DNA of 64,000 nucleotides from Candidatus Latescibacterota bacterium (GTDB taxonomy: Bacteria; Latescibacterota; UBA2968; UBA8231). The notes below the pieces were generated by a model. That model was given only the letters and a program-made list of their open reading frames with translations. It made no database searches and was not told the DNA's origin. The translations under genes were made by a program, and so were the position numbers. The stretch is from assembly GCA_965197905.1 (NCBI GenBank), contig CBDAOB010000004.1, forward strand, positions 1,408,001-1,472,000, read 5' to 3'. Positions 13,734 through 54,289 of the stretch are shown piece by piece (the first letter of the stretch is position 1; every line of letters begins with the position of its first letter).

Positions 13734-15173
13734 CTAGGCCCCTAGGTCTTTGTAGAGTTCCGCAAACGCTGCGACGATGATGTCGACGGTGTCCGCCGTG
13801 GGCGGCGCCGAGATGTGGTAGGATTTCACCGCAGAACTAACAGACATGCCTCCCTGTTTCACCGTCTGCGCCGATGGCCAATAGGCCAGCACCCCGTTGC
13901 AGTAGCCGGCGAACAGCGTGACCAGGGTGTCCGACAACGCCTTCACTCCCAGGCCGATCTCCACAAAAGGCTCGCCCGGCATTCCGGCGAAAACGAAATC
14001 GTCAATCCGATAGCCGACGATCTCGAAATTCAGGTGTTCGCTGGTAATGCCTGCCTCGACCTTGTCGAGGACGGTTTTGGTCCAGCTCTGGGTCATCAGG
14101 GCAGGATAGGTCTGTCTCGGGGGTGCCCCGGAGGTTTCGAGCTCCTTCAGTGCATTCTCCGCCGCGTCAAATTGCGCCCTAGCTTCTGTCGCCGTTGGAA
14201 GCGGTTGCAACGGCACCTCTATGTTTCGCTGCGCCACCCGAAAGAGATCGTGCCCCGGACCGTCCTGAAACTCCTTGTGATATAGGGCCAGAGCCGAGAG
14301 CGAAGCGCCGACCTCGCGCACCACTTCGTGAGGGCGGGTTTCGATCTCGAAGAAGGCCTTGGCGGCGGCGGCTCCCACCTGCCCGCCCATACGTTCCATT
14401 TCCGAACTATCGTGTTGGAGGAACGACAGGGCCGCCTGATTGCCGGCGGCCCCTGTGAAATAGAGACATGTTGCTCCCGTCGCGGCCTCCACGACACGAC
14501 GGGTCACGCCGGGAAAATCCTGACTGATCTGATACCAACGCTGACCCATCACCACCGGGTGGGCGGCGTATCCGGTTACCACCGCAACCGGATTTCCGTC
14601 CAGATCGTCCACTCGCAACACCTCCACGTTGTGATCGGTGGTACCATCCGGATTGCGCCCTACCAGCACGCGACCGTCGTCGTTCAGTTCCTCGCGATTG
14701 ATGGCCACAGCCGCACAGCTGCGGCCGCTGCCGACCCGCGCCGGCTGCGCACTGCGATCCGCATCGGCGGCAGCGGCGGCCAGTTGTCTCTTGAGATTCG
14801 CGATATAAAAATCCAGCGCGGCTCTTTCATTGGTGTCGCCTCCAACGTCGTGCACGCCTCCCAGATTCCCGCGCGAGGTGCATGGACCGTTGTGGGTGTG
14901 GGTGCATCCCACCGCCACCTGTGCAGGAGGTACCCCGACTGCGGCTCCGATTTCCTGGCGGATCTTTGCCACTAAATCCATGTCGAAGCCGATCAGATCG
15001 CAGTCTACCAGGACGACCTTCGTGCTTTCGTCGGCGAGAACGAGAATCGTCGCCAGCAGATTGGACTCGACACCCCGCGCACCTTCGATTCGGCTCATGA
15101 TGCCTTGCATGCGAAATCCTGCGGGTGGCGTTATGTCGATACGTGCGATTCCGGCTTTCAACATTGAACTCAT
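13734..15173 (-). CDS. Neutral/alkaline ceramidase-like metal-dependent amidohydrolase
   Basis: LKAGIARIDITPP, CTHTHNGP, GYAAHP, GAAGN, MPGEPFVEIG, GYCNG..AY; ATG 15173 after GAAAGGAG. Confidence 0.8.
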   Translation of the reverse strand: MSSMLKAGIARIDITPPAGFRMQGIMSRIEGARGVESNLLATILVLADESTKVVLVDCDLIGFDMDLVAKIRQEIGAAVGVPPAQVAVGCTHTHNGPCTSRGNLGGVHDVGGDTNERAALDFYIANLKRQLAAAAADADRSAQPARVGSGRSCAAVAINREELNDDGRVLVGRNPDGTTDHNVEVLRVDDLDGNPVAVVTGYAAHPVVMGQRWYQISQDFPGVTRRVVEAATGATCLYFTGAAGNQAALSFLQHDSSEMERMGGQVGAAAAKAFFEIETRPHEVVREVGASLSALALYHKEFQDGPGHDLFRVAQRNIEVPLQPLPTATEARAQFDAAENALKELETSGAPPRQTYPALMTQSWTKTVLDKVEAGITSEHLNFEIVGYRIDDFVFAGMPGEPFVEIGLGVKALSDTLVTLFAGYCNGVLAYWPSAQTVKQGGMSVSSAVKSYHISAPPTADTVDIIVAAFAELYKDLGA

Positions 15174-15397: not shown

Positions 15398-16516
15398 ATG
15401 CAAAAAAACGTTCGCCTACCGCAGGTCGAGCTGAACATGGAACGGGTCCAGGTCGCTCGCTGGCTTGTCGATGTCGGCGAGAGGGTAACGGTCGATCAGC
15501 CCATTCTGGAGGTGGAAACACAGAAGGCGACGGTAGAGGTACGCAGCATGGACGCCGGGTTCGTGCGTCTGAAATGCGTAAGCGATGCAAACGAGATTGG
15601 GGAAGGAGCATTCCTCTGCGTGCTTACCGACAACGCAGAGGAACCCTTCGAGGGTCCAGCCGCTGCGCACCCGCAGACCTCGGCAAAGGTGCCCACGGCA
15701 CCAAGAAACGCAGGCGCGATCGAGCTGGTCGCGAAGCCGACGAGAATCGTGCCCGCTGCGCCGGCGGCACGACGGCTGGCCAAGGAACTCGGCATCGACT
15801 TGACCGCCGTGGCTGGTAGCGGCCCCGGAGGGCGGGTGACGGAAGCGGATGTGCACGCCTTCGATCAGAGCTGCGACGACAGCACAACCGGCGCATGGAT
15901 ACCGATCGATCCGGTGCGACGAGCCCTGAACGATCAGATGGAGCGATCGTTGCGTGCGATTCCGCAGTTCCACCTGCGCCGCGAGATGGACGTGACTGCG
16001 CTGATGGCGGAACGGTCGAGCACTACCTTTACCCATCGACTCATTGAATGCACCGCTGCGGCGTTGAAACGACACCCAGCATTGCGCACTAGCATTGCCG
16101 ACAACAAACTCAAGGAACAGCCGATCGACGTCGCGGTTGCGATGCAGTCGCCGACCGGTTTGGTGGCGCCGGTGCTGCGCAACGCGGATCAACGCAGCCT
16201 GACGGAGATCGCCGCTGGGGTCAGAAGCCTGGCGCAGCGTACCGATGAGCTAACGCGCGAGGAACTCTCCAACGCTCCGTTTGCCATTTCCAATTTGGGC
16301 ATGTTCGGGGTCGATTCCTTCGACGCCTTCGTCTTCCACGGTCAAACGGCGGTTCTCGCCGTCGGCAAGACGCGACGTGAGGAGGACAACAACGCGGTCG
16401 CGTCCTTCAGCCTGGCGTTGGACCACCGTGTTGTGGACGGCGTGGAGGGCGCCAAGTTTCTGGCCACGCTGCAGGAAGAAATCAACGATTTTGAAGTTCC
16501 TCGAACATCAAAGTAA
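15398..16516 (+). CDS. 2-oxoacid dehydrogenase E2 dihydrolipoamide acyltransferase
   Basis: Lipoyl domain LEVETQKATVEV, E3-binding PAARRLAKELGIDL..GSGPGGRV, catalytic DHRVVDG. Confidence 0.9.
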   Translation: MQKNVRLPQVELNMERVQVARWLVDVGERVTVDQPILEVETQKATVEVRSMDAGFVRLKCVSDANEIGEGAFLCVLTDNAEEPFEGPAAAHPQTSAKVPTAPRNAGAIELVAKPTRIVPAAPAARRLAKELGIDLTAVAGSGPGGRVTEADVHAFDQSCDDSTTGAWIPIDPVRRALNDQMERSLRAIPQFHLRREMDVTALMAERSSTTFTHRLIECTAAALKRHPALRTSIADNKLKEQPIDVAVAMQSPTGLVAPVLRNADQRSLTEIAAGVRSLAQRTDELTREELSNAPFAISNLGMFGVDSFDAFVFHGQTAVLAVGKTRREEDNNAVASFSLALDHRVVDGVEGAKFLATLQEEINDFEVPRTSK

Positions 16517-17684
16517 ATCGATCCTCTCCCAGTTCGGGCTGGAGTTTACCCAACCGGTGGTCGTGGCAACGGCGGCGGCAGCTGCGGTAAGCCGGTTGAA
16601 CGCCAAGGCGGTGCTCAAAGCCCAGGTCCCCGTGGGGGGACGCGGCAAAGCCGGAGCGGTCAAGATCGTTGAATCGGTAACCACCGCCGAGACGGCCGCT
16701 GGCGAGCTCCTAGCCATGCAGTTGGGCACGCAACCCGTACGCGAGGTGTCGGTGGAACCGTTCGTCCCGATCGAGCGGGAGTTCTACGTCGGCGTCACCT
16801 GGGACCTGGCGGCGAAACGACCCATCGCCCTATTGAGCACGAGCGGCGGCATCCACGTCGAGCAGGAAGCGGCCGGTTCCTTTGCCACCAGACACCTGGA
16901 CCCATCAGCGGGACTGGCCCCCTATCAGGGACGTCAGATGGCGCACGAAATCGGCTTGTGCGGGCGGGTCTTAGCCCAAGTTGGCGCCACGATCTCGCGC
17001 CTGTCCCACGCGTTTGTGGCGTTGGATGCGGTAACGGCGGAGATCAATCCCCTGGTCATCGACCCCGATGATCACTTAATAGGTCTCGACGCGCGATTGG
17101 AGATCGACGACGACGCCGGATACCGGCAGACGAAAACGGTGGAACGGTTCGGTCACGCGGGCACCGGGGCCGGCGATCGACCCCCGACCCCGCTGGAGAC
17201 CGAAGCGGAACGGATCGACGCCATGGATCACCGCGGCGTCGCCGGCCGTTTGGTGGAATTCGACGGCAATCTGGGACTTTTGATCGGCGGTGGTGGAGCC
17301 AGCCTGACCGTATTCGATGCGGTTTTGCACCACGGCGGTCGTCCAGCCAACTATTGTGAGATCGGCGGCAATCCGACGGCGGAAAAGATCGCCGCCCTGA
17401 CCACCCTGTTGTTTTCCAAGAAGGGGATTAAGAAACTCGGGGTGATCATGAACGTGGTGAACAACACCCGGGCTGACGTCATAGCAGAGGGTGTCGTCGC
17501 CGGCATTCGCGCCGCCGGGTTGGAGCCCAAGGAAGCGATTGCGGTGTTTCGGGTGCCCGGGTCCTGGGAGCCGGAAGCCCAGAAGATCATGGCCGCGGCA
17601 GGGGTCGCGGCTCAAGGCCGAGAGGTTTCTCTCGATGGGGCAGCTCGACTCGCGGTCGAAGCGTCGGTTGCCGATGCTGCTTGA
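16491..17684 (+). CDS. ATP-grasp CoA ligase beta subunit (citryl-CoA synthetase/ACL-like rather than canonical SucC)
   Basis: TTG start MKFLEHQSK, KAQVPVGGRGKAG, AEINPL, IGGGGAS (ACL-type; SucC has NGAGL), PANYCEIGGNP. Confidence 0.8.
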   Translation: MKFLEHQSKSILSQFGLEFTQPVVVATAAAAAVSRLNAKAVLKAQVPVGGRGKAGAVKIVESVTTAETAAGELLAMQLGTQPVREVSVEPFVPIEREFYVGVTWDLAAKRPIALLSTSGGIHVEQEAAGSFATRHLDPSAGLAPYQGRQMAHEIGLCGRVLAQVGATISRLSHAFVALDAVTAEINPLVIDPDDHLIGLDARLEIDDDAGYRQTKTVERFGHAGTGAGDRPPTPLETEAERIDAMDHRGVAGRLVEFDGNLGLLIGGGGASLTVFDAVLHHGGRPANYCEIGGNPTAEKIAALTTLLFSKKGIKKLGVIMNVVNNTRADVIAEGVVAGIRAAGLEPKEAIAVFRVPGSWEPEAQKIMAAAGVAAQGREVSLDGAARLAVEASVADAA

Positions 17685-18549
17685 CCCCGAGGCTGAGGTC
17701 ATGGTTCAGGGTATTACCGGTCGCGAAGCCAGCAGCATGGTGGAGGATATGCTTGCGTATGGCAGCCGTGTTGTCGCCGGAGTAACCCCGGGCAAAGGCG
17801 GTCAGAAGGTGTTTGGGCTTCCGGTATACGATACCGTCGCGGAGCTGATGGAGCATCATAGTCCCTCTATCACCGTGATCTCCGTCCCGGCGCCAGCGGT
17901 TCTCGACGCGGCGTTGGAGGCGTTCTGTTTTCCTCTAGAGGTATGCTTGGTAATGTCGGAGCGGGTACCCCGCCTCGACACCTGTAAGCTGGTAGTTGCG
18001 GCTGAGGTGGGCGGGTGTACGGTGATCGGTCCCAATTCGTTGGGGCTCATCCGGCCCGGCATCGCCAAGCTGGGCACCGTGGGTGGCCGGCTCGACAACG
18101 TGCAGCGCTCCTACCGCCCGGGACAGGTCGCCGTGCTTTCCCGCAGCGGCGGCATGACCACCGAGATCGCCAGCTTCCTCACCAGCCGGGGCATCGGCCA
18201 GAGCATCGCCGTGGGCATTGGCGGCGATTCCATTGTAGGCGCCAATTTCCTGGAGCTGATCGAACTGCTCGAAAGCGATGAGCAAACCAGCTCGGTGGTT
18301 ATCTACGGCGAGCCCGGCGGCACCGCAGAGGAAGACCTGGCTGCAAGGCTCATCGAAAAGGGAAGCCGCCTTAAGGTGAACGCCTTTCTTTCCGGAAACT
18401 TCGTCGACGACCTGGAGGGGGTACGTTTCGGCCATGCCGCGGTCATAGTTGAAGGCGGCCGCGGTTCGGTGGCGGGTAAAAAGGCAGCGCTACGGGAGGC
18501 GGGGGTATTTGTGGCCGACGAGTTCGAAGACATAACTAGGGGGCTTTGA
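17674..18549 (+). CDS. CoA ligase alpha subunit (citryl-CoA synthetase small subunit/SucD-like)
   Basis: VQGITGREAS, VAGVTPGKGG, IGPNSLG, SRSGGMTTE, GIGGD, RFGHA phosphohistidine. Confidence 0.85.
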   Translation: MLLDPEAEVMVQGITGREASSMVEDMLAYGSRVVAGVTPGKGGQKVFGLPVYDTVAELMEHHSPSITVISVPAPAVLDAALEAFCFPLEVCLVMSERVPRLDTCKLVVAAEVGGCTVIGPNSLGLIRPGIAKLGTVGGRLDNVQRSYRPGQVAVLSRSGGMTTEIASFLTSRGIGQSIAVGIGGDSIVGANFLELIELLESDEQTSSVVIYGEPGGTAEEDLAARLIEKGSRLKVNAFLSGNFVDDLEGVRFGHAAVIVEGGRGSVAGKKAALREAGVFVADEFEDITRGL

Positions 18550-18550
18550 T

Positions 18551-19306
18551 ATGAGCGACTTTTGGAAGACCTCCATATCTCGAGTGCAGCCGGGAGAGAT
18601 TCTCGTTCGTGGGTATCCAATCGAGCAGCTGATGCAGCGCTGTTCGTTCGGCGATGTCGTCTACCTTCTGTTGAAAGGCGAGCTGCCCGCCGGCGCCGAG
18701 GGCAAGATGGTGGGCGCGTTGTTGGTCTCATGCTGTGAGCACAGCCTTGCTTCACCCAGCGTCGACGCTGTTCGATTCGTGGCTTCCTGCGGCGTTCCGT
18801 TGCAGACCGCCGTGGCTGCCGGCGTGAGCGCCATCGGCGATGTTCATGGGGGCGCGATGGAACCGTGTGCCGTCATTCTCAAGCAAGCGGTGGCCGCCGG
18901 AAAGGACGCGGATGAAGTCGTTAAGGAGTTCCGCGCGAGCGGTAAACGCATGCCGGGATATGGACACCCCGTGCACCGCCAACAGGACCCGCGGGTCGTC
19001 GCCTTGTTGGAACTGGCAGCGAAGTGGAGTATATCCGGTCCGCACACGGCGTTGGCGCGCGACCTCGAACGCAGTCTGGAGCGGGAACTCGGTCGGCGCT
19101 TACCGATGAATGTCGACGGTATCATTGCCGCCTTGCTCTGCGACATGGAGATCGATCCGGCGTTGGGCAAGACCTTCTTTATCGTCAGCCGTGCCGCCGG
19201 ATATGCCGCTCACGCTCATGAACAGACCACCGCCGAGCGGCCCTTCAAGGCACCGGGCATTGAAGAGATCACCTATACCGGACCCGAGAAAAGAGACGTT
19301 CCCTAA
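18551..19306 (+). CDS. Citryl-CoA lyase family protein (short citrate-synthase fold)
   Basis: 251 aa; WKTSIS...ILVRGY, HGGAME, PGYGHP, DPR, MNVDG, SRAAGYAAH. Confidence 0.85.
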   Translation: MSDFWKTSISRVQPGEILVRGYPIEQLMQRCSFGDVVYLLLKGELPAGAEGKMVGALLVSCCEHSLASPSVDAVRFVASCGVPLQTAVAAGVSAIGDVHGGAMEPCAVILKQAVAAGKDADEVVKEFRASGKRMPGYGHPVHRQQDPRVVALLELAAKWSISGPHTALARDLERSLERELGRRLPMNVDGIIAALLCDMEIDPALGKTFFIVSRAAGYAAHAHEQTTAERPFKAPGIEEITYTGPEKRDVP

Positions 19307-19357
19307 GACAGAACGGGAATCGAACCCAGAGGAAGGCGACCAAGCCAAGGAGTAGCG

Positions 19358-20335
19358 ATGAGTGCGCGTGAACTGACCATGGCCGAAGCCATCAACGAGG
19401 CGATACGCCACGAGATGCGCCGCAATCCCGAGATCATGTTGCTCGGCCAGGACATCGGCGCCTACGGGGGAACCTTCGGGGTCTACCGCGGGATCTTCGA
19501 CGAGTTCGGCGAGGACCGGGTCAAAGACGGCCCGCTGTGCGAGGCTGCCACCGTCGGTTTCGGCATAGGACTGGCGTTGAGCGGAATGCCCACCATCGTG
19601 GAAATCGAATTCTTCGACTTCATCACTCTCGCCTCTGACGCCCTGGTCAATCAAGCGGCAAAGATGCGGTACTTCTACGGGGGTCAGGTGAGTGTGCCGC
19701 TCATTTTGCGGGCGCCGATCGTCAATCGCTTGAGTCTCGGTGCGCAGCATTCCCAGAGCCTGGAAGCCTGGATGATGCACATTCCCGGTCTCCGTGTGGT
19801 TATTCCGTCCAATGGCGCCGACGCCAAGGGACTGCTACTGACGGTGATGCGGGAAAACAACCCCACTCTCTTCATCGAGAACGTCCGCCTCTACGCCGGC
19901 AAGGATGAGGTGCCCGAGGCGGATGAGGCGATTCCGCTGGGAAGGCTGAGAGTGGCGCGGGAGGGTGACAACCTGTCGATCGCCTGTTACAGCGGCATGG
20001 TCAAACCGTGCCTGGAAGCAGCCTCGGTGTTGGAGCAAGAGGGAATCCGATGTGACGTGCTCGATTTGCGCACCCTGTCTCCCCTCGATACCGACGGCAT
20101 CTGCGAATCGGTGCGCAAGACCGGGCGCCTCGTGGTAGCCCACGAAGCGGTCAAAACCTGCGGACCGGGCGCAGAGATCGCGCAGGTTGCGATGGAAGGA
20201 GCCTTCGATTACCTGCAGGCACCTATTGCTCGAGTCGCCGCCAAGGACCTTCCAATTCCGACGGGAGAGCTGCAGAGCGAAGTATTCCCCGACGCAGATG
20301 ATGTGGCGGCAGCGGCGCGGTCGGTGATGGCCTGA
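19358..20335 (+). CDS. TPP-dependent 2-oxoacid/acetoin dehydrogenase E1 beta
   Basis: LGQDIGAYGG, GAQHSQSLEA, DAKGLL, DLRTLSPLD, FDYLQAP. Confidence 0.92.
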   Translation: MSARELTMAEAINEAIRHEMRRNPEIMLLGQDIGAYGGTFGVYRGIFDEFGEDRVKDGPLCEAATVGFGIGLALSGMPTIVEIEFFDFITLASDALVNQAAKMRYFYGGQVSVPLILRAPIVNRLSLGAQHSQSLEAWMMHIPGLRVVIPSNGADAKGLLLTVMRENNPTLFIENVRLYAGKDEVPEADEAIPLGRLRVAREGDNLSIACYSGMVKPCLEAASVLEQEGIRCDVLDLRTLSPLDTDGICESVRKTGRLVVAHEAVKTCGPGAEIAQVAMEGAFDYLQAPIARVAAKDLPIPTGELQSEVFPDADDVAAAARSVMA

Positions 20336-21318
20336 TGACGAACGAAAGGAAAGAGATGAGTGAGGACCTGAGTCTCGATACCCTGCTGGAGTGGTACGAG
20401 CAGATGTTGAACATCCGGTATTTTGAGGAGAACGCGGTCAGCAGTTTTCGCAAGGGGTTGTTCGGCGGCAGCACGCATCCGCAGATCGCCCAGGAAGCCA
20501 CGGCGGTCGGCGCTGCCGCGGCGCTTCAACTCACCGACCAGGTTCTGGCCACCTATCGCGGCCACGGTCACGCCATCTGCCGCGGCCTGTCGCTTGGCTC
20601 CATCATGGCCGAACTGTTGTGCAAGAGCACCGGTTGTTGCGGCGGCCGTGGTGGTTCGATGCACCTGTGCGACACGGAGCGCGACTTCTGGGGCACCAAC
20701 GCCATCGTCGCCGCTCACATCCCCATCGCCGCCGGCATCGCCCTGGCCAACCAGCGGCGGAAAGACGGTCGAGTGGTGGTTGTTTTCTTCGGCGACGGAG
20801 CCACCTGTGAAGGCGCGTTCTTCGAGACCCTCAACATGGCCACCCTGTGGAAGGTACCGCTAGTGCTGGTCTGTGAGAACAACGGGTACGCCATCTCCGT
20901 CCCCACCTCCAAGGCACACTCGGTTTCGGAGATTGCGGATCGCGCGTTGGGATTCGGCTTGCCCGGAACCTCGGTGGACGGGAACGACCCGATCGCGGTC
21001 TACGAAGCGGTGGGCGCAGCGGCCGAGCGCGCCCGCAACGGCGAGGGGCCTTCACTGGTTGAATGCCGCACAATTCGCTGGGAGCGACACAGCGCCATCT
21101 CGTCGGGCGCCTACGACAACGAGGAGGAGGCGCAGAAATGGAAGACGGTGGACCCGATTCCCCGCTTTGAGAAGTTGCTTGCCGAGCGCGGCGCGCAGGG
21201 GGTGGTGTTGGAGGAGATCCGGCAGCGCGCCAAAGCCAGAAACGATGAGGCTTTGCAGTTTGCCATCGACAGCCCGACGCCGGCAGCGGAAACCGTGGGA
21301 GATTTTGTGTTCTCATGA
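20335..21318 (+). CDS. TPP-dependent 2-oxoacid/acetoin dehydrogenase E1 alpha
   Basis: TYRGHGH, GRGGSMH, FFGDGA...ENN TPP motif, VDGND. Confidence 0.92.
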   Translation: MTNERKEMSEDLSLDTLLEWYEQMLNIRYFEENAVSSFRKGLFGGSTHPQIAQEATAVGAAAALQLTDQVLATYRGHGHAICRGLSLGSIMAELLCKSTGCCGGRGGSMHLCDTERDFWGTNAIVAAHIPIAAGIALANQRRKDGRVVVVFFGDGATCEGAFFETLNMATLWKVPLVLVCENNGYAISVPTSKAHSVSEIADRALGFGLPGTSVDGNDPIAVYEAVGAAAERARNGEGPSLVECRTIRWERHSAISSGAYDNEEEAQKWKTVDPIPRFEKLLAERGAQGVVLEEIRQRAKARNDEALQFAIDSPTPAAETVGDFVFS

Positions 21319-21414
21319 TGGAAACGGTCACTACTGTGCCGGCAATGTGCCGCCTTGACCGGGGCTGCCTAAAGTCGCTTAATCAGGCCGACATTCTTGT
21401 GGAGGATAACTGAG

Positions 21415-22803
21415 ATGAGCGAATCATCGACGGCGGCGGCCAAACTAGCCGCCTTCTGTGCCGATATCCGCTGGGACGACATACCGTTGGAAGTACGGGA
21501 ACGGACGAAAGACTTCCTCCTCGACTCCCTGGGTGTGACGTTCCGGGGCACCCTCGAGGCCTCTAGCAAACCGGGCGTCGACTACGTCCGCGGCTTACAG
21601 ACCGACGGTCCCTCGTCCGTCATCGGCGAGGGGTTCCGCACCAGCGCGCCGTGGGCTGCTCTTGTCAACGGCACCGCCGCCCACGCCATCGAAATGGACG
21701 ATGTCACCAGCGAATCTTCACTGCATCCGGCGGTTTGTGCCATACCGGCCGCAGTCGGTGTCGCAGAAGAACGGGGCGCTGATGGGGCAGCGTTGGTGGC
21801 GGCGATCGTTGCCGGTTACGAGGTCACCCTGCGGGTTGGCAACGCCCTGAATCCCTCCTCCGCATATCAGCGAGGGTTCCATCCCACCAGCGTTTCAGGC
21901 GTTTTTGGAGCTGCTACCGCCGCCGCCCATATCATGGGGCTGAATGCCGCTCAACTTACCGACGCCCTCGGCATTTGCGGGTCCATGGCCTCTGGCTCTA
22001 TGGAGTATCTAACCGACGGCGCCTGGACGAAGAGAATCAACGCCGGATGGGCGGCACACGCCGGTACGGTCGCCGCCGGTCTCGCCGCCGCCGGTTTTAA
22101 CGGGCCACCCACCATTTTCGAAGGACCTCATGGGTTTCTCACCGGATTCACGGACGAGCCGAAAACAGCGCGCCTGTTGGATGATCTCGGCGACTTCTAT
22201 CAGATCCAAAAGGTGTCGATCAAGCCCTACGGTTGTTGCCGCTACAACCACGGTATCATCGACTGCATGTTCGCCTTGAGGGAAGAGCACGGCATCACGC
22301 CGGAGCAAGTCGAGAAAATCCGCTTTTCCGTGTTGTCTGCGGGCAGAGACATCGTCGCCGAGCCCATCGAGCAGAAACAGGCGCCCGAGAACGTCGTCGA
22401 TGCCCAGTTCTCCGCCCACTTCGCCGCCGCGGTCGCCCTGGCGCGCGGGGTCGCCGACGTCAATCAATTCACGCCGGAGAGTATCCAGGATCCGGTCCTC
22501 CGCGACCTCACCGCCAGAACGGAGCATCACTTCAATCCGGAGATCGACCGCCTCTATCCGCTGCAGTGGCGAACTGAAGCCGAGATCGAGCTGCGCGACG
22601 GACGTGTTGTGGCCACCGAAATCGACCACGCCACCGGTGAGCCCGAGAATCCGGTTCCCCGCGAGGACCTAGTCGAAAAGTTCATTCTGCTCGCGGAACC
22701 ACTCCTCCAAGGAGTCGCGGCTCAAGACCTGACCCGTCAGATCCTTACCATCGACCGCGAACCGGGCGGTTTCGAGATCGTCATGAGCACCCTGCGGCGT
22801 TGA
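21415..22803 (+). CDS. MmgE/PrpD family protein
   Basis: NGTAAHAIEMDD, LHP, GFHPT, FEGPHGF, KPYGCCRYNH, AQFS. Confidence 0.92.
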   Translation: MSESSTAAAKLAAFCADIRWDDIPLEVRERTKDFLLDSLGVTFRGTLEASSKPGVDYVRGLQTDGPSSVIGEGFRTSAPWAALVNGTAAHAIEMDDVTSESSLHPAVCAIPAAVGVAEERGADGAALVAAIVAGYEVTLRVGNALNPSSAYQRGFHPTSVSGVFGAATAAAHIMGLNAAQLTDALGICGSMASGSMEYLTDGAWTKRINAGWAAHAGTVAAGLAAAGFNGPPTIFEGPHGFLTGFTDEPKTARLLDDLGDFYQIQKVSIKPYGCCRYNHGIIDCMFALREEHGITPEQVEKIRFSVLSAGRDIVAEPIEQKQAPENVVDAQFSAHFAAAVALARGVADVNQFTPESIQDPVLRDLTARTEHHFNPEIDRLYPLQWRTEAEIELRDGRVVATEIDHATGEPENPVPREDLVEKFILLAEPLLQGVAAQDLTRQILTIDREPGGFEIVMSTLRR

Positions 22804-22977: not shown

Positions 22978-24108
22978 ATGGCATTACACGAGGCGGTCAA
23001 GAGAGTGCTGGCTGCGAAGGGCGACAGAAAAAATGACTTCGAGCGGTTAAAAACCACACTGGCACTAAAAGAAGCCGATTGCGTCCCTGCCTTCGAGATG
23101 AGCATCGAGCCGGAGATCAAAGAACTGTTCATGGGACGTACACTAAAAGGTCACGCCGATGAGATGCAGTTCTTCCAGCAAGCGGGTTACGATGCCTACC
23201 CGGTGGCCCTAACAGTCATCAGCGTGCATCACAAACGCCGGGAGACGGAACGGACCGAGCAGGTGGATGTCACCCACACGAAAACGCGGACCTACAAGGC
23301 CGAGCTCGAGGCCTACACCGAACGCTATTGGGCGGAAATGCATAGGGGTGTAATAACCACCAAGGAAGAGTTCGCCGAATTCGACTGGCCCGACCCCGAC
23401 AACCTCGATTTCTCCGTCCTCGACGAAGTTGCCCCACTGCTTCCCGACGGCATGAAGATCAGCGTCATCATCGGCAAGATCTTCACGGGCGTCTGGTTCA
23501 TGATGGGACTGGAGACGTTCATGCTCGCCTGCATCGACGATCCCGAGCTCATTGAGATGATGTACGAGAAGGTCATTCCATTACAGCAACGCGCCATGGA
23601 AGCCGCCATGGCACATCCGGGGGTGGGCATGAGCTTCCACGCCGATGACCTGTCCGGCAAGAACGGGCCTCTCGTCCACCCGGACCACTACAAAAAGTAC
23701 GTGTTTCCCGCCTACACGAAGATGGCTGAGATGGCCAAGGCCGCCGATAAGCCGATGGTGTATCACACCGATGGCAAAATCGATATGATCATCGAGGAGT
23801 TGCTGGCCACGGGCATCGACGGGTGGCATCCGATCGAGAAGCAGGCACACGACATCAATGAGGTGAAGGCGGAGTACGGCAACCGCATCGCCCTCCTGGG
23901 CAACATCGATCTGCAGTATACCCTCACCAAGGGGACCCCCGCAGAGGTCGATGCCGAAGTGCGCGAGCGCATCCGCGACCTGGGGCCGGGAGGCGGTTAT
24001 TGTGTCTCCTCGGGAAACTCGATTCCGGAGTATGTCCCCATCGAGAACTATGCGGCTATGCTCGAGGCGACCTACAAATATGGCAAATACCCCCTATCAC
24101 TGAGCTAG
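22978..24108 (+). CDS. Uroporphyrinogen decarboxylase / MtaA-CmuA methyltransferase family protein
   Basis: WPDPD, ADDL, YHTDG, LLGNID, GPGGGY..SSGNSI. Confidence 0.85.
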   Translation: MALHEAVKRVLAAKGDRKNDFERLKTTLALKEADCVPAFEMSIEPEIKELFMGRTLKGHADEMQFFQQAGYDAYPVALTVISVHHKRRETERTEQVDVTHTKTRTYKAELEAYTERYWAEMHRGVITTKEEFAEFDWPDPDNLDFSVLDEVAPLLPDGMKISVIIGKIFTGVWFMMGLETFMLACIDDPELIEMMYEKVIPLQQRAMEAAMAHPGVGMSFHADDLSGKNGPLVHPDHYKKYVFPAYTKMAEMAKAADKPMVYHTDGKIDMIIEELLATGIDGWHPIEKQAHDINEVKAEYGNRIALLGNIDLQYTLTKGTPAEVDAEVRERIRDLGPGGGYCVSSGNSIPEYVPIENYAAMLEATYKYGKYPLSLS

Positions 24109-24116
24109 GACCGGCA

Positions 24117-24854
24117 ATGGCGATCGAGAACGAAGGAATAGAAGAAGAACTGGAGTGGGTCGAGGACCCGACCGAGAACGCGGATCTACGGGCGATCTTC
24201 GAAAGGGCGGATCCCATAATGCAAAATATCGCCTATGGCGTGATCACGGGCGAGCAGGAGACCTGCGATACCTTGACGAGAAAGGCCATTGACGACGGTC
24301 TTGATGTGCACACCATCCTCGACGATGGCCTGATCGCCGGAATGTCGGTGGTGGGGGTGAAGTTTCGCGACAACATCGTCTTCGTGCCCGAGGTGCTCGT
24401 CTCCGCCCGCGCCATGAAGGCGGGTATGGCCCACATCGACCCGATTCTTTCAGACTCCGGTATCGAGAAGATCGCCATCGTCATCATGGGCACAGTGAAG
24501 GGCGATCTTCACGACATCGGCAAGAATCTGTGTATCATGATGCTTAACGGAGCGGGTTTCGAGGTTCACGACCTGGGCGTCGATACGGGCTCTGAAGAGT
24601 TCATCGAGGCGGTGAAAGAACACGACGCCAAGATCGTCGGCATGTCAGCTCTACTGACAACGACGAGTATCAACATCGGCAAGACCATTCAAGAGTTCAA
24701 AGAAATCGGGCTTGGAGATGTGAAAACGATGGCCGGTGGTGCCGCCTTGAATCAAGAGCTAGCGACTGAAATGGGCTGCGACGGGTACGGCAGAGACGCC
24801 ATCGCCTGCGTCGAGAGAGCCAAGGAGTTCGCGGGAGTTCGCGAGCCTGGGTAA
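24117..24854 (+). CDS. Corrinoid (B12-binding) methyltransferase protein
   Basis: GTVKGDLHDIGKNL (DxHxxG), DLGVD, GMSALLTTT, AGGA. Confidence 0.93.
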   Translation: MAIENEGIEEELEWVEDPTENADLRAIFERADPIMQNIAYGVITGEQETCDTLTRKAIDDGLDVHTILDDGLIAGMSVVGVKFRDNIVFVPEVLVSARAMKAGMAHIDPILSDSGIEKIAIVIMGTVKGDLHDIGKNLCIMMLNGAGFEVHDLGVDTGSEEFIEAVKEHDAKIVGMSALLTTTSINIGKTIQEFKEIGLGDVKTMAGGAALNQELATEMGCDGYGRDAIACVERAKEFAGVREPG

Positions 24855-24933: not shown

Positions 24934-25761
24934 CTACAGAAGTGGTGCGATCGCATCCCGCATCTTGATCGATTCGGTCATGACGTCGCATTTGTCCATC
25001 TCCAACCAGTGCGGTTCGTGCTCGTATTCCAGCGTTAGGTACCCTTTGTATCCGGCGTCCTTCAGCATGCCCACCGCCGCCGGGAAATCGATCTCTCCAT
25101 CCTCCCAGCGAGCCTGGATCTGGGTGCTGGACCCCTGGCGCAGGTGAAAGTGCCCGGTAAACGGCACCAACGGGTCCACGTCCGCCATCTTGTATCCTTG
25201 CACCGTGAAGTGGGCGTAGTCGAGGGCCAGGCGCAGGTCGGGGTTCTGCTGCATGAATTCCAGCACTTCCCGTGGATTCTCCAGCAACCCCTCCACGTGG
25301 GGTTCGAAGGTGAGCGGGATCCCCGCTGCCGCCGCTACCGAAGTCATCTCCGACAACACCTCTGCCGCTAGGGACATCGAGTCTTCGTGGCTCATCCCCT
25401 CCTGATCCACACCGGGAAGAATGAGGAGTGATTTGATGTCCGCGGAGTTGCAGCAATCGAGAACCTTCCTGAAGGTCTCCATGTTGCGCTCGCGCACCGA
25501 TACATCCTTCGAGTTGATGGCTCGATCGGCGAAATCCTCTCCAAAGAGATAGAGCAGATTGCTCAATTCGATTCCAGGCTCCTTGAAGCGACGGGCTTGA
25601 CCGGCCGGATCCTTTTCAATATCCGCGGGGTCGATCTGGGTGCCGGTGATCGCGAGCAGATCGATCGCTTCCACGCCCAGGGCGCGCCAGATGTTGGCTG
25701 ACTCAACCAGGTTGGTACCTACAAAAGACCAGGCCGCTCCTGACAGTTTGATATCACCCAT
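24934..25761 (-). CDS. Sugar phosphate isomerase/epimerase (xylose isomerase-like TIM barrel)
   Basis: FEPH, LDYAH, FHLR, GEIDF, LTLEYE. Confidence 0.85.
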   Translation of the reverse strand: MGDIKLSGAAWSFVGTNLVESANIWRALGVEAIDLLAITGTQIDPADIEKDPAGQARRFKEPGIELSNLLYLFGEDFADRAINSKDVSVRERNMETFRKVLDCCNSADIKSLLILPGVDQEGMSHEDSMSLAAEVLSEMTSVAAAAGIPLTFEPHVEGLLENPREVLEFMQQNPDLRLALDYAHFTVQGYKMADVDPLVPFTGHFHLRQGSSTQIQARWEDGEIDFPAAVGMLKDAGYKGYLTLEYEHEPHWLEMDKCDVMTESIKMRDAIAPLL

Positions 25762-25812: not shown

Positions 25813-26619
25813 TTACTCTGCGGTGCCGGGAACCGCTGCGGTAGTGCTCAACAGACCCCCTTCCACATCCAGGGCGACGCCCGTGATAAAATCCGAAGCG
25901 TCTGAGAGCAAGAACATGATTGCGTTGACGATGTCCGCTTCGGTTGGGTTTCTGCCGAGAGGGATCTCGGACGCTGTTGCGGCGAGGATATCCTTCGGAT
26001 TTTTGCCCGAAGAACCTTCTTTCCAGTCCAACACCGTCTTGCCCATCCCGGTAGTGGAGACCCCCGCTGGGCAGACGCAATTCACCGTAACGCCGGCTGG
26101 TGCCAATTCGCCGGCGATCGATTTGGTCAGTCCGACGACGCCGAACTTGGCCGCGGTGTACGCCGTGATGATCGGCCAACCGATCTTCGACGCGTCCGAG
26201 CCGATGTTGACGATGCGTCCTCTCCGGCCGCTCTCTCGCAACAAAGGCGCGGCTGCCTGACAACAGAGAAATACGCCCTTGAGATCGACGGCGATGACGC
26301 GATCCCAATTCTCCTCTTTGACCTCGTCAAGCGGGGCGAAATCTATCACGCCGGCTGAGTTCACCAGCGAATCCAGCCCCCCAAAGGCGCGGCCACAGGC
26401 GGCCACCGCCTCCTGAACAGACGTTTTCGAGGTCACGTCCAGCTCCAAGGGAAGCACGCTGTCGCTCGCAAGCTCTGTTTTTGCTTTTTCCAGCTGGGCA
26501 GGATCGATGTCGCCGATGGCCACCTGCGCCCCTTCTTCCAACAGGGCTTTGGTGGTCGCCAGGCCAAAACCATTGGCTCCGCCGGTGACCAGGGATTTGC
26601 GTGGTTCGGATTCAGACAT
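25813..26619 (-). CDS. SDR family oxidoreductase
   Basis: VTGGANGFG, LVNSAG, YTAAK, VNCVCP. Confidence 0.93.
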   Translation of the reverse strand: MSESEPRKSLVTGGANGFGLATTKALLEEGAQVAIGDIDPAQLEKAKTELASDSVLPLELDVTSKTSVQEAVAACGRAFGGLDSLVNSAGVIDFAPLDEVKEENWDRVIAVDLKGVFLCCQAAAPLLRESGRRGRIVNIGSDASKIGWPIITAYTAAKFGVVGLTKSIAGELAPAGVTVNCVCPAGVSTTGMGKTVLDWKEGSSGKNPKDILAATASEIPLGRNPTEADIVNAIMFLLSDASDFITGVALDVEGGLLSTTAAVPGTAE

Positions 26620-26673
26620 TTTCTCACGTCCTCTACTAGCGTGGGACAAGTCCGTATTCACGTTCAATTCTGC

Positions 26674-27804
26674 TCAGCTATCGAAATAATATTTCTCTAC
26701 CGCACTGTCCAGAATGGTAACGCCTAATCCCGGCGATTCTCGCACCGACAGATATCCGTCTTGTTGAACCCATGGATCGGACACCAGCTCGTGCTGCATG
26801 GGTGACTCGTGGGGTTTGAAGTCCATGGACGCGGCATGGGTGGAGTTCGCCATCAGGTGGACGCTGGCGGCGGTATTGAGCGCGCTGCTCCAGGTATGGG
26901 CACTCCATTCGAGGTTCTCTGCTTCGATCAGTTTTATAACGTGCCGACAACCGGTGATTCCGTGACAGCGCCCCGGATCCATCTGTACGACGTCGACCCC
27001 ACCGGATTGGAGCAGCCGCCGGTAACTCTCTACGTTCCACTCGTCTTCTCCGGTGCCGACGTTGGTGGCAACGGCGGCGCGCAACCGGGCGTGCCCCTCC
27101 AGATCGCTGGGAAAAAGCGGTTGCTCGATCCACCGGAGGGCATACGGTTCTAGGTCCCGAAAACGTTGAATCGCCGTGGGCACGTCCCAGATGTTCCACA
27201 CCCCAGGGGTATCCACCACCAGGTCGATCTCTTCGCCGATAAGGTTACGCACCTTGCCGACGACTTCGATATCCTTTTTGCGGTCCAGGCCGAATACCGC
27301 TTCCGGCTTCATGCCCCACCCGGCTTTGACGATCTGATACCCTTCATCCACCATGAAGCGGAACTCGTCGAGAGTCCAGTTGAAATCCTCCATATCGAAG
27401 ATGATCGAAGCCATGGCAAGGACGCGATCATGGAGCTGACCACCAAGAAGATTGCAGACCGGCAATTGAAGCAGCTTTCCTTTCAGATCCCACAGAGCCA
27501 TGTCCACGGCGCTCACCGCGAAGGCGGCGATCCCCTCGGGACCATACCACCAGATCCGTTCGAGCATCTTGTTCCACAAACGCTCGACCTCAAGCGCCGA
27601 CTCACCCACGAGCAAAGGGGCGTAACCCTGTTCGACGATGATCTTCGTCGCCAACGAGGACTCGCGAAATTGCGAAATGCACTCGCCCCATCCCGTCGTA
27701 CCGTCTTCCGCTTCCACCCGCGCCAGGGTTATGTAACGCTCAATTCCCTTGTAGTGCGGCTCGGGGTACGCCAGCGGGAAAGCCTGAATGCTCTTGATTT
27801 TCAT
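26674..27804 (-). CDS. Mandelate racemase/muconate lactonizing enzyme family protein
   Basis: GWGE, SAVDMALWDLKGK..LPV..LLGG, WIEQP, TGEDE. Confidence 0.9.
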   Translation of the reverse strand: MKIKSIQAFPLAYPEPHYKGIERYITLARVEAEDGTTGWGECISQFRESSLATKIIVEQGYAPLLVGESALEVERLWNKMLERIWWYGPEGIAAFAVSAVDMALWDLKGKLLQLPVCNLLGGQLHDRVLAMASIIFDMEDFNWTLDEFRFMVDEGYQIVKAGWGMKPEAVFGLDRKKDIEVVGKVRNLIGEEIDLVVDTPGVWNIWDVPTAIQRFRDLEPYALRWIEQPLFPSDLEGHARLRAAVATNVGTGEDEWNVESYRRLLQSGGVDVVQMDPGRCHGITGCRHVIKLIEAENLEWSAHTWSSALNTAASVHLMANSTHAASMDFKPHESPMQHELVSDPWVQQDGYLSVRESPGLGVTILDSAVEKYYFDS

Positions 27805-27809
27805 CGGGT

Positions 27810-28847
27810 TCACTCCTGGTGATGAGTGTATTCCTTAGCGCCGGGCCGGCAGTGGGGCAAGGGAAGATCTGCGATGGTCAAAAACCCGGCCGCGGCCTGC
27901 ACGACTCGAGGGATGCAGCTGGCCAGCATGCCCGCAGTACCCAGCTGCGGATTGCAGCCAGGGTTCAAACGCAAGCGCAGCGGATTCGAACCTTCGATGT
28001 CGATGGTGTCCTCTGCTTGGAGGCCGAGCGACGGCAAATCCACGTGCGCCACAAACTCAGCTTCTATCCAGGGACGATCGTCCAGAAATCCGGTGACGCG
28101 CTGAGTAAAACCTGCCGTTTGCCCGCGCTCAATCCGTAGCTGACTGCCGGATGTGGCGCCAGTAGCGAGATGGGGTTCGAACTGTTTCGTTATTCGTTTC
28201 AGATCGCATCCCAAACACTTGGCCACCATATTGAAGGTTTGCGGGAACCCGATATTCCTACGGACGGTACCGTTGGCTACACCCGCGTCGAACTCTTCGC
28301 TCGAATACCCCAAACCGAGGCGGCGTTGGACCGTCGCGCTGAATCCGGAGACGTCGACCACGCGGCGGAAAGAGATCTTCTCCACATCCCAGCTGATAGC
28401 GCTGGCGGTCAAAAACAGCGCATCGAAGATGAAACCGGGGTTTAGGCCGGCACCCAGGACACTCACACCGCGTTGGCGCGCAGCGGCGTCGATTTCGTCG
28501 CTTAGCTGTTTATCGGTAGACCAGGGATAAGCCGCTTCTTCAGCGGTGGTGAGCACGTTCAATCCGCCCTCGATACCCTGGCGAATGTCGACGGCTACCT
28601 CGCGGAGAAATGAAGTGGTAGCGATGAGCAGAATTTCCGCGTCCTGACCGAAGACGAGATCGCGTTCGGTGCTGATCGCCACGCCCAGTGGTTCGCTACC
28701 GGCGTGGATGCCCAAGTCTACTCCCGCGTAGTCGGCGTTCCGCGTCAAGGCGCCGACAATAAGGATTTCTTCTCTTTTTTGCAGGAGGCGGGTGAGGTTT
28801 TTGACAACACCTCCCACGCCTGAAAAGATGAGTCGCGTCTGTGACAT
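27810..28847 (-). CDS. 2,4-diaminopentanoate dehydrogenase / DapB-like NAD(P)-dependent oxidoreductase
   Basis: GLNVLTTAEE.AYPW, LGAGLNPGFIFD, IPRVVQAAAGFLTIADLP. Confidence 0.75.
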   Translation of the reverse strand: MSQTRLIFSGVGGVVKNLTRLLQKREEILIVGALTRNADYAGVDLGIHAGSEPLGVAISTERDLVFGQDAEILLIATTSFLREVAVDIRQGIEGGLNVLTTAEEAAYPWSTDKQLSDEIDAAARQRGVSVLGAGLNPGFIFDALFLTASAISWDVEKISFRRVVDVSGFSATVQRRLGLGYSSEEFDAGVANGTVRRNIGFPQTFNMVAKCLGCDLKRITKQFEPHLATGATSGSQLRIERGQTAGFTQRVTGFLDDRPWIEAEFVAHVDLPSLGLQAEDTIDIEGSNPLRLRLNPGCNPQLGTAGMLASCIPRVVQAAAGFLTIADLPLPHCRPGAKEYTHHQE

Positions 28848-52882: not shown

Positions 52883-53142
52883 TGGACGAGTTGACCTTCG
52901 ACATTCAGAATATCGCCGCCGGTCAGGGATCTGACCTCGCCATTACCGGGATGGTTATCGTATTTGTCGCCCTGACACTGATCAGCCTGTTCATCCGCTT
53001 GTTGCCGCGGGCCCTGGAACTGGTCGGCCGGTTGCTGCCTGCTATGGACGACCCGCATCAGGTTGTCTCGCCATCGGTGCCAGATGCTGCGGGCCGCATC
53101 GCAGCGATCGGTTTTGCCCTACACCAGGAAACGGTTTCGTGA
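52882..53142 (+). CDS. oadG: Na+-transporting decarboxylase gamma subunit
   Basis: TGMVIVFVALTLI TM segment followed by IAAI. Confidence 0.8.
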   Translation: MDELTFDIQNIAAGQGSDLAITGMVIVFVALTLISLFIRLLPRALELVGRLLPAMDDPHQVVSPSVPDAAGRIAAIGFALHQETVS

Positions 53143-54266
53143 ATATTCTCCTGGACTTTTTCGGAACAACCGGATTCGCCAACATGACCTGGGGCAATCT
53201 GTTGATGATCGCGATCGGCATTATTTTCGTCAGTCTCGCGATCGTCAAGGATTACGAACCGCTACTGCTGCTGCCCATCGGATTCGGCATGGTCGTGGGC
53301 AACATCAACTCGATCCCCAGCATGGCGTTGGGGGTCTACGACCAGGGCAGCGTTCTGAGCTATATCTACTTCGGTGTATCCCAGGGCATTTTCCCACCGT
53401 TGATCTTCCTCGGCATTGGCGCCATGACCGATTTTTCCACCATGCTCGCCAATCCGAAGCTCGTTCTTTTGGGCGCCGCCGCACAGATTGGCATTTTTCT
53501 AACGCTTATTGGAGCACTGTACCTCGGCTTCACCCCCGCCGAGTCCGGCGCCATCGGCATCATCGGCGGCGCAGATGGGCCTACGGCGATATTTCTGTCA
53601 GCTAAGCTGGCACCCCATCTGCTGGGTGCCATAGCGATAGCCGCCTATTCCTACATGGCGTTGGTGCCGGTGATTCAGCCCCCCATCATGAACCTGCTCA
53701 CAACCCGGCGGGAACGTCTGATCCGGATGCAAACGCCACGGCGGGCAACGCAGCGGGAGAAGATCATATTTCCGATCGTCGCATTCCTCATAGCGGCCCT
53801 GATCGCGCCGGGATCGATCGCACTTGTGGGCATGTTGTTTTTCGGAAATCTGTTGAAGGAGAGCGGAGTGACTGAGCGCCTCGCTGCTACCGCGCGCACC
53901 GCCATGGTCGACATCGTCACCATACTGCTTGGTTTTTCTGTCGGAGCCAGCACTCAGGCGCAGACCTTCCTGAAACCGCAATCCGTGCTCATCTTCGCCC
54001 TTGGCGCGTTGTCGTTTGCCATCGCCACGGCAGGTGGGGTCCTCTTCGCCAAATTCATGAACCTGTTCCTCAAGGAGAAGATTAACCCACTGGTTGGCGC
54101 CGCGGGAGTGTCCGCGGTGCCGGATTCCGCACGTGTGGTACAGATGGTTGGGCAGAAAGAGGACCCGCACAATTTTCTCCTCATGCATGCCATGGCACCC
54201 AACGTAGCCGGGGTGATCGGCTCGGCCATTGGTGCCGGGGTGTTATGGTCGGTTCTGGTGGATTAG
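53139..54266 (+). CDS. oadB: Na+-transporting decarboxylase beta subunit
   Basis: YEPLLLLPIGFG, GAMTDF, GIIGGADGPTAIF, AYSYMALVP, SAVP.SARV, HAMAPNVAGVIGSA. Confidence 0.95.
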   Translation: MNILLDFFGTTGFANMTWGNLLMIAIGIIFVSLAIVKDYEPLLLLPIGFGMVVGNINSIPSMALGVYDQGSVLSYIYFGVSQGIFPPLIFLGIGAMTDFSTMLANPKLVLLGAAAQIGIFLTLIGALYLGFTPAESGAIGIIGGADGPTAIFLSAKLAPHLLGAIAIAAYSYMALVPVIQPPIMNLLTTRRERLIRMQTPRRATQREKIIFPIVAFLIAALIAPGSIALVGMLFFGNLLKESGVTERLAATARTAMVDIVTILLGFSVGASTQAQTFLKPQSVLIFALGALSFAIATAGGVLFAKFMNLFLKEKINPLVGAAGVSAVPDSARVVQMVGQKEDPHNFLLMHAMAPNVAGVIGSAIGAGVLWSVLVD

Positions 54267-54289
54267 CGAGGTAGAAGAAAGAGATTGAC

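Follow-up and report, generated by a model that had tools for sequence, protein, structure and literature searches.

A candidate module for the CoA-dependent cleavage of a malate-type dicarboxylic acid in a Latescibacterota genome

We analyzed a window of 64,000 nucleotides (the whole stretch of DNA studied here; positions 1,408,001 to 1,472,000 of contig CBDAOB010000004.1, assembly GCA_965197905.1), which is part of the 6.7 Mb genome of a Candidatus Latescibacterota bacterium. Seven genes at positions 15398 to 22803 of the window encode a two-subunit acid-coenzyme A (CoA) ligase, a citrate-synthase-fold lyase of the Ccl family, the E1 and E2 components of a 2-oxoacid dehydrogenase, and a protein of the MmgE/PrpD family. 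We regard the cluster as a real and conserved catabolic variation on CoA-dependent acid cleavage in two steps, and apparently an undescribed one, as the initial annotation had supposed: searches combining sugar acid, CoA ligase and citryl-CoA lyase, or Latescibacterota or Poribacteria with citryl-CoA, found no description of the module in a literature coverage that mostly excludes subscription journals. With moderate confidence, we propose that the module activates a dicarboxylate of the malate or citramalate type with ATP and CoA and then cleaves it in a retro-Claisen reaction, the 2-oxoacid product being oxidized by E1/E2.

The module is likely the final part of a sugar-acid catabolic pathway. 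A class I fumarase would serve as the hydratase feeding it, and the PrpD-family protein (a racemase-type enolase in other genomes) would first set the stereochemistry of the acid. The ligase would then convert a malate/citramalate-type 2-hydroxy-1,4-dicarboxylic acid into its CoA ester at the expense of ATP, the lyase would split the ester into acetyl-CoA and a 2-oxoacid, and E1/E2, together with an E3 encoded elsewhere, would oxidize the latter. We infer these reactions, their directions and the substrate class from the genes, their motifs, the ligase clade, synteny, gene swaps and a missing arginine. The order of activation, cleavage and oxidation had been suggested by the initial annotation and is also the best reading here, because the ligase and the lyase form the constant pair and E1/E2 is the part that is lost. 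The open reading frame (ORF) calls and the Pfam domain calls agree on the following genes, in the order originally described.

15398..16516, + strand: E2 acyltransferase of a 2-oxoacid dehydrogenase (Pfam), with one lipoyl domain (Lys43 in ETQKA), an E3-binding domain and a shortened catalytic domain (SNLG, DHRxxDG)
16491..17684, + strand, TTG start: beta subunit of an acid-CoA ligase of a separate clade, with a CcsA-like DHRG insert, GGG, GGNP and NNT, and Val355 at the position of CcsA VRR
17674..18549, + strand: alpha subunit of the ligase, with the phospho-His254 motif FGHA, and SRSGGM
18551..19306, + strand: citrate-synthase-fold acyl-CoA lyase of the Ccl family, with H64, H99, H139, R148, D189, R214, and Lys233
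19358..20335, + strand: E1 beta of the dedicated 2-oxoacid dehydrogenase (domain and model searches, alignment)
20356..21318, + strand, alternative ATG start at 20335: E1 alpha, with an intact GDG...NN motif and Ser replacing the Phe that precedes the conserved His in human pyruvate dehydrogenase (PDH) E1alpha
21415..22803, + strand: MmgE/PrpD-family protein of the two-base (epimerase-like) type, with H105 and Y151, additional to the housekeeping PrpD of the genome

The junctions down the cluster measure -26, -11, +1, +51, +20 and +96 nucleotides (+20 turns into an overlap if the ATG at 20335 is used), in agreement with the overlapping or short junctions first noted among the leading six genes. 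The motifs GGGAS, SRSGGM, FGHA, EHS and GHP reported for the ligase and the lyase are all present in the translations. As stated earlier, the cluster has no E3 gene; three genes over the TIGR01350 cut-off were found, all of them elsewhere in the genome. The E1 order, beta before alpha, recurs in every orthologous locus having both genes. Since the genome has separate copies of canonical sucCD, two citrate synthases, five more E1 pairs, three more full E2s, the E3 genes and a second PrpD, the cluster is additional to central metabolism.

Both ligase subunits scored under the curated models of succinyl-CoA synthetase, namely TIGR01016 (231.8 vs 375.55 bits) and TIGR01019 (251.4 vs 353.2 bits), and the beta subunit reached only 182.1 against the cut-off of 604 of the MtkA model NF010647. 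The SucCD motifs NGAGL, NIFGG, SRSGTL and MGHA were not found in the ligase of the window, whereas the SucCD of the relatives of this genome carry NGAGL, SRSGTL and MGHA. In a FastTree phylogeny of 168 rows, the ligase clade (support of 1.0) was placed inside a wider branch (0.999), apart from both SucC and the branch of ligases with a pair of arginines at the acid site (RR-type). A grouping with SucC was recovered neither in this tree nor in a quick tree of 37 rows, and it was rejected by the approximately unbiased (AU) test in IQ-TREE on 23 chosen rows (p=0.008). The same test rejected a topology that unites the clade with RR-type ligases and leaves its sister branch outside (p=0.003), the RR-type being represented by six proxies chosen by motif with the named CcsA absent from the tree. 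The ligase thus stands, as far as sequence comparison goes, on a separate branch beside CcsA-like ligases, and the earlier view that it is not a SucCD is supported by the sub-cut-off scores, the trees and the separate sucCD of the genome.

The acid-binding domain is closest to that of H. thermophilus CcsA (79.2 bits vs 61.1 for the best succinyl-CoA synthetase), with which the ligase shares the DHRG insert, GGNP and the NNT loop. At the acid site, however, FR[VI]PG was found in all 120 homologues including that of the window, and the second arginine of CcsA is absent; the same position reads VRRNG in H. thermophilus CcsA and VRLEG in E. coli SucC, and RR is retained by a representative clade of 25 members in the 168-row tree. 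The missing residue corresponds to Arg379 of human ACLY, which we take to bind the third carboxylate of citrate. The accessible parts of two papers confirm the residue numbering of ACLY and not the binding role (PMC9504748, PMC13670275). Because the ligase is without this second arginine, a dicarboxylate is a likelier substrate than the tricarboxylate originally suggested. Judged from its residues, the acid site of the clade is half SucC-like and half CcsA-like, so that one can test how citrate cleavage evolved from succinyl-CoA synthetase.

The lyase passed the Ccl subfamily model NF004869 (245.6 vs 212) and did not reach the Ccl equivalog NF004864 (227.9 vs 261). Its best match, by both sequence and fold, is H. 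thermophilus Ccl (6hxp; 41% identical), and the catalytic set of H64, H99, H139, R148, D189 and R214 is complete. The initial annotation had read EHS and GHP as hints of an altered substrate. Both states predominate in the clade (EHS in 96 and GHP in 87 of 120 homologues; distant Ccl proteins have DHG in 52/67 and GHR in 58/67), but no catalytic residue is affected by either, and some orthologues within the same operon have DHG or GHR. Position 233 is of more interest: Lys was found in 113 of the 120 homologues and Arg at the same position in 51 of 68 distant loci. Lys233 aligns with the C-terminal active-site Arg of B. subtilis citrate synthase, C. limicola ATP-citrate lyase and a PrpC-like protein, the alignment to H. 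thermophilus Ccl being ambiguous there, and it sits at the C-terminus, where the monomer model of the lyase is of low confidence. On the alignments, the loss of the arginine in the ligase and the Arg-to-Lys change in the lyase are better markers than EHS and GHP.

Searching GTDB genomes with the ligase, we retained the best 80 of 199 loci, comprising 29 core loci (51-84% identity) and 51 sister-branch loci (41-49%). The core loci and this genome make up a core set of 30 genomes, many of them drafts, so that a miss means 'not found'. A ligase orthologue was detected in 5 of 60 relatives. The order E2-beta-alpha-lyase-E1beta-E1alpha is kept in 6 of the 30 genomes (this genome, L022, L037, L040, L047 with an insert, and G088 on two contigs), and L035 and L057 have the same order minus the lyase. 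Among the best 80 of 490 loci in a lyase-based metagenome scan, there were 13 lyase orthologues (62-72% identity); the ligase alpha gene lies directly 5' of the lyase in 12 of them, the thirteenth locus starting inside the lyase, and L160, L163 and L164 contain all six core genes. Ligase and lyase thus travel together, as had been expected. The conservation anticipated for the seven-gene set holds for the six-gene core alone: the full set was seen only in this genome among the loci listed, and a PrpD orthologue stands at the module in 2 of 30 genomes.

The lyase slot is filled in two ways. A Ccl orthologue was found in 14 of the 30 genomes, a CitE-type match in 15, both in none, and neither in one draft (G081). 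Twelve of the 15 CitE genomes are Poribacteria, and in 6 of those 12 the CitE gene lies within the fetched ligase locus. The sister-branch loci, which have the same acid site, include genes for a CitE-type lyase (21/51), PrpD (11), a mesaconyl-CoA-hydratase-like protein (8), a flavoprotein resembling succinate dehydrogenase (8) and fumarase (3); by gene content, the sister branch sits beside genes of C4/C5-dicarboxylate metabolism. We recognized no aconitase- or isocitrate dehydrogenase (IDH)-family gene among the genes that recur around the core loci.

The PrpD slot also varies, and most often it contains an enolase-family gene instead of PrpD. The PrpD of the window scored 44.1 against 950 bits for the curated model of 2-methylcitrate dehydratase, and its matches in the PDB were only iminodisuccinate epimerase and IRG1-like proteins (best, 2hp3 with 139 bits). 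The residues of a two-base epimerase are present (H90, E93, H105, Y151, H156, K206, K270), predicting such an activity, and the extra catalytic Tyr is absent from the housekeeping copy. We considered and rejected a role as the dehydratase of the methylcitrate cycle: the Pfam search found the second copy, common to 5 of 5 genomes, and prpBC and this second PrpD are located elsewhere in the genome, not at the cluster. In the accessible part of one study, the substrates of PrpD-family enzymes all have a 1,4-dicarboxylate backbone, the epimerases carry the extra Tyr, and class I fumarases form (S)-citramalate by hydrating mesaconate (PMC12290011). From the earlier proposal that PrpD isomerizes or (de)hydrates a tricarboxylate, we keep its probable place ahead of the ligase; the backbone common to the substrates of the family fits a dicarboxylate. 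In a genome of the same genus (G062) and in L031, L034, L035, L040, L047, L163, L164 and L166, the slot is occupied by an enolase of the mandelate-racemase type (KxK/His; hereafter the second enolase, at L047:18397-19542 in the L047 locus), usually 3' of a split class I fumarase. The second enolase was found in 8 of the 30 genomes and, in these small numbers, never together with a PrpD orthologue; the split fumarase alpha was found in 10.

E1alpha and E2 missed the equivalog cut-offs of PDH (334.5 vs 393.85 and 193.6 vs 445, respectively), E1beta passes a subfamily model, and E2 lies under every NCBIfam E2 cut-off. The replacement of Phe by Ser in E1alpha is common to 7 of 7 orthologues. An E1alpha orthologue was found in 9 of the 30 core genomes and no E1 in the other 21; in three close relatives that keep the ligase, the lyase and the upstream genes, E1 is cleanly absent. 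As the pairing of ligase and lyase is constant and E1 is so restricted, E1/E2 would be the dispensable end of the pathway. Two candidates were discarded: an Arg in a loop of E1beta as a marker of a dicarboxylate substrate (the paralogues have Arg nearby), and, as the absent E3, a conserved gene (469 amino acids) located 5' of E2 in other loci, which is L-arabinose-isomerase-like and has only a 24% match in this genome. The lipoyl Lys of E2 is preceded by Gln, not Asp, in all eight orthologues aligned, and the catalytic domain has deletions relative to the other E2s of the genome. G088 has a second orthologous E1/E2 set (L141:1-8817) with lactonase-like, Gfo/Idh/MocA and short-chain dehydrogenase (SDR) genes and without a ligase; it adjoins genes for methylisocitrate lyase and a methylcitrate-synthase-like protein, hinting at propionyl-CoA as a product. 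In the G062 copy (L022:9403-15899), the frames of E2, both ligase genes, E1alpha and the second enolase are broken by assembly error or decay, and only E1 fragments are left in G084 (L044:8365-12595), where a transposase gene lies 5' of the ligase.

The seven genes lie within the boundaries first drawn, but the system extends beyond them to sugar-acid genes on the opposite strand.

13734..15173, - strand: neutral-ceramidase-like hydrolase, divergent to the cluster (Pfam), with an orthologue in 8 of 30 genomes
24934..25761, - strand: xylose-isomerase-like TIM barrel, about 30% identical to copies in Verrucomicrobia/Planctomycete operons
25813..26667, - strand: SDR (Pfam), a probable pathway member
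26674..27813, - strand: enolase-family protein of the mandelate racemase/muconate lactonizing enzyme group (Pfam), a predicted acid-sugar dehydratase (the first enolase), with an orthologue directly 5' of E2 in two metagenome loci

The ligase operons of Verrucomicrobia and Planctomycetes add a cupin regulator, a Gfo/Idh/MocA dehydrogenase, a TIM barrel, an enolase, SDRs, a glyoxalase and the arabinose-isomerase-like gene. Their enolases are 65-70% identical to the first enolase, which occurs in 21 of the 30 core genomes, and the SDR and the TIM barrel of the window are probably members of the same pathway. Outside the window, a cluster of glyoxalase, MlrC-like peptidase, SDR, TIM barrel and enolase genes (G000:C5:993089-997888) is 51-73% identical to genes of these operons and likely represents the upstream half of the pathway. 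In a Verrucomicrobium and a Planctomycete, the ceramidase-like gene lies beside SDR/TIM-barrel genes, and its product likely catalyzes an upstream step. The first enolase adjoins a ROK kinase gene in Poribacteria and is also found in ligase-less relatives (see below), so it would serve a wider pathway.

Several observations weigh against the cleavage of a malate/citramalate-type acid followed by E1/E2. The lyase retains all of the catalytic and nearly all of the oxaloacetate-site residues, and the change from Arg to Lys233 is, on chemical similarity, conservative and fits a tricarboxylate such as citrate too. Citramalate has no epimerizable C-H, so an epimerase would need malate or a 3-substituted malate as precursor. 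As to the lyase swap, the 12 Poribacteria among the 15 CitE genomes are kin, their CitE scored under both the CitE and the RipC cut-offs, and one of the three other matches, next to a MaoC gene, may be part of a different pathway. Enzymes of the CitE family cleave citryl-CoA as well, which makes the swap compatible with citrate. The first enolase is not confined to the module, since 12 of 55 ligase-less relatives also have it. Furthermore, its abutting E2 in L163 and L164, and the presence of sugar dehydrogenase, lactonase-like and prpBC genes and no ligase at the second E1/E2 set of G088, fit E1/E2 acting upstream. In such a pathway, a dehydratase would yield a 2-keto-3-deoxy sugar diacid (4-hydroxy-2-oxoglutarate type), E1/E2 would convert it to a malyl-type CoA ester, and either the lyase would cleave the ester or the ligase would run in reverse, as in sucABCD, to give ATP and the free acid. 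The gene order E2-beta-alpha indeed mirrors sucB-sucC-sucD, oxidative decarboxylation of a 2-keto-3-deoxy acid should give a 3-hydroxyacyl-CoA, the type of substrate of the lyase, the Ser of E1alpha suggests a larger polar substrate, and G075 and G089 have retained E1/E2, ligase and fumarase although no lyase lies next to them. Nevertheless, we judge this order rather unlikely: the 21 genomes in which E1 was not found include complete chromosomes keeping the upstream sugar genes, ligase, lyase, fumarase and racemase-type enolase, no locus with E1 and lyase minus ligase was among those listed in the lyase-based scan, and the CitE-type gene of G089 adjoins the second enolase elsewhere in that genome.

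The original proposal of a tricarboxylate, with the pair being a true CcsAB/Ccl or acting on a related acid such as homocitrate or 2-methylcitrate, agrees with the almost intact lyase site, the closeness of the lyase to H. thermophilus Ccl (the PRK06224.1-6 cut-off is passed) and the CcsA-like acid-binding domain. We consider it improbable in view of the second arginine missing throughout the homologues, the AU rejection of RR-type grouping, the lack of recognized aconitase/IDH-family neighbours and the fact that oxaloacetate is no substrate of E1. A spare succinyl-CoA synthetase among chance neighbours would explain why the best solved relatives of the ligase alpha subunit are succinyl-CoA synthetase alpha chains and why databases name the homologues succinate--CoA ligase; however, the model scores, the AU test against SucC, the canonical sucCD elsewhere in the genome and the conservation of the operon in several phyla leave it hardly any probability.

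Compared with known systems, the ligase shares the fold, the phospho-His and the E2-beta-alpha gene order with SucCD/sucABCD and differs in motifs, scores and clade; E1 alpha/beta is of the PDH type, not the SucA type. MtkAB and malyl-CoA lyase of the serine cycle likewise activate a malate-type acid with ATP and then cleave it, but the beta subunit falls far under the MtkA cut-off and the lyase is of another fold. CcsAB and Ccl of H. thermophilus (6hxq, 6hxp) are alike in combining a two-subunit ADP-forming ligase with a stand-alone citrate-synthase-fold lyase, and in the features of ligase and lyase given above; the ligase of the window differs in the missing arginine and separate branch, and the module in its catabolic neighbours (E1/E2, enolases, sugar dehydrogenases). 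The module would work like CcsAB/Ccl, but we do not class it as a member. In the accessible part of one report, citryl-CoA synthetase (CCS) and citryl-CoA lyase (CCL) come from autotrophic Aquificaceae and Leptospirillum (PMC13147460). The itaconate/methylsuccinate/citramalate degradation cluster of Pseudomonas and Cupriavidus (Ict, Ich, (S)-citramalyl-CoA lyase, Msi and class I fumarase) resembles the module, in what is accessible of its description, in CoA activation, in C-C cleavage to acetyl-CoA and a 2-oxoacid, and in being fed by a PrpD-family isomerase and class I fumarase (PMC12290011). That cluster relies on a CoA transferase together with a lyase of the CitE family, in place of an ATP-dependent ligase and a citrate-synthase-fold lyase, and has no dedicated E1/E2 in the part described; the PrpD of the window has no adjacent acyl-CoA dehydrogenase. 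Iminodisuccinate epimerase shares the two-base His/Tyr with the window PrpD, the match being distant.

More tentatively, we suggest that Latescibacterota, Verrucomicrobiota, Planctomycetota, Lentisphaerota and Poribacteria share a route for a branched-chain or deoxy sugar that needs neither kinase nor aldolase. It would end in a new 2-substituted-malate:CoA ligase coupled to a lyase of the citrate-synthase fold whose substrate is not citrate. The ligase would represent an extant intermediate between succinyl-CoA synthetase and ATP-citrate lyase, and the exchanges Ccl/CitE and PrpD/mandelate-racemase family would be two cases of convergence. As the source, a branched sugar acid derived from apiose, hamamelose or aceric acid would fit, which is speculation. 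If true, the module would add new specificities of ligase and lyase and give abundant uncultured heterotrophs a new way to complete sugar-acid catabolism. The swaps pair enzymes of unrelated folds that should have a common substrate, which narrows the candidates. Since CCS and CCL genes serve as markers of reverse tricarboxylic acid cycle autotrophy in the accessible parts of two reports (PMC9802188, PMC13147460) and the module is a catabolic look-alike, false calls of that cycle are possible; the missing arginine and the neighbouring genes tell them apart.

A scan for promoters and terminators gave no signal over chance level, and a plasmid search returned 109 records, all below 60% (best, approximately 35%). 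At positions 22978-24854, a URO-D-like methyltransferase and a corrinoid protein are encoded 3' of PrpD on the same strand, and a URO-D orthologue adjoins the cluster only in G061 among the loci seen. Two ORFs at 53139-56161, 30 kb from the cluster, may encode the beta and alpha subunits of a sodium-pumping oxaloacetate decarboxylase, which they resemble by eye. A TonB-dependent receptor gene lies 3' of the ligase pair in 8 of 12 Poribacteria loci (L026-L030, L032, L036, L038). In 17 Chloroflexota loci of the sister branch, mostly of Tepidiformaceae (L049-L056, L058-L064, L066, L068), the beta gene has no adjacent alpha and is followed by a recurring ORF without a Pfam domain. The Chloroflexota sister loci L067-L095 combine the ligase pair with genes for a CitE-type lyase, a mesaconyl-CoA-hydratase-like protein, methylmalonyl-CoA mutase and acyl-CoA dehydrogenase, and in 10 of them an ORF of 87 amino acids lies 3' of alpha.

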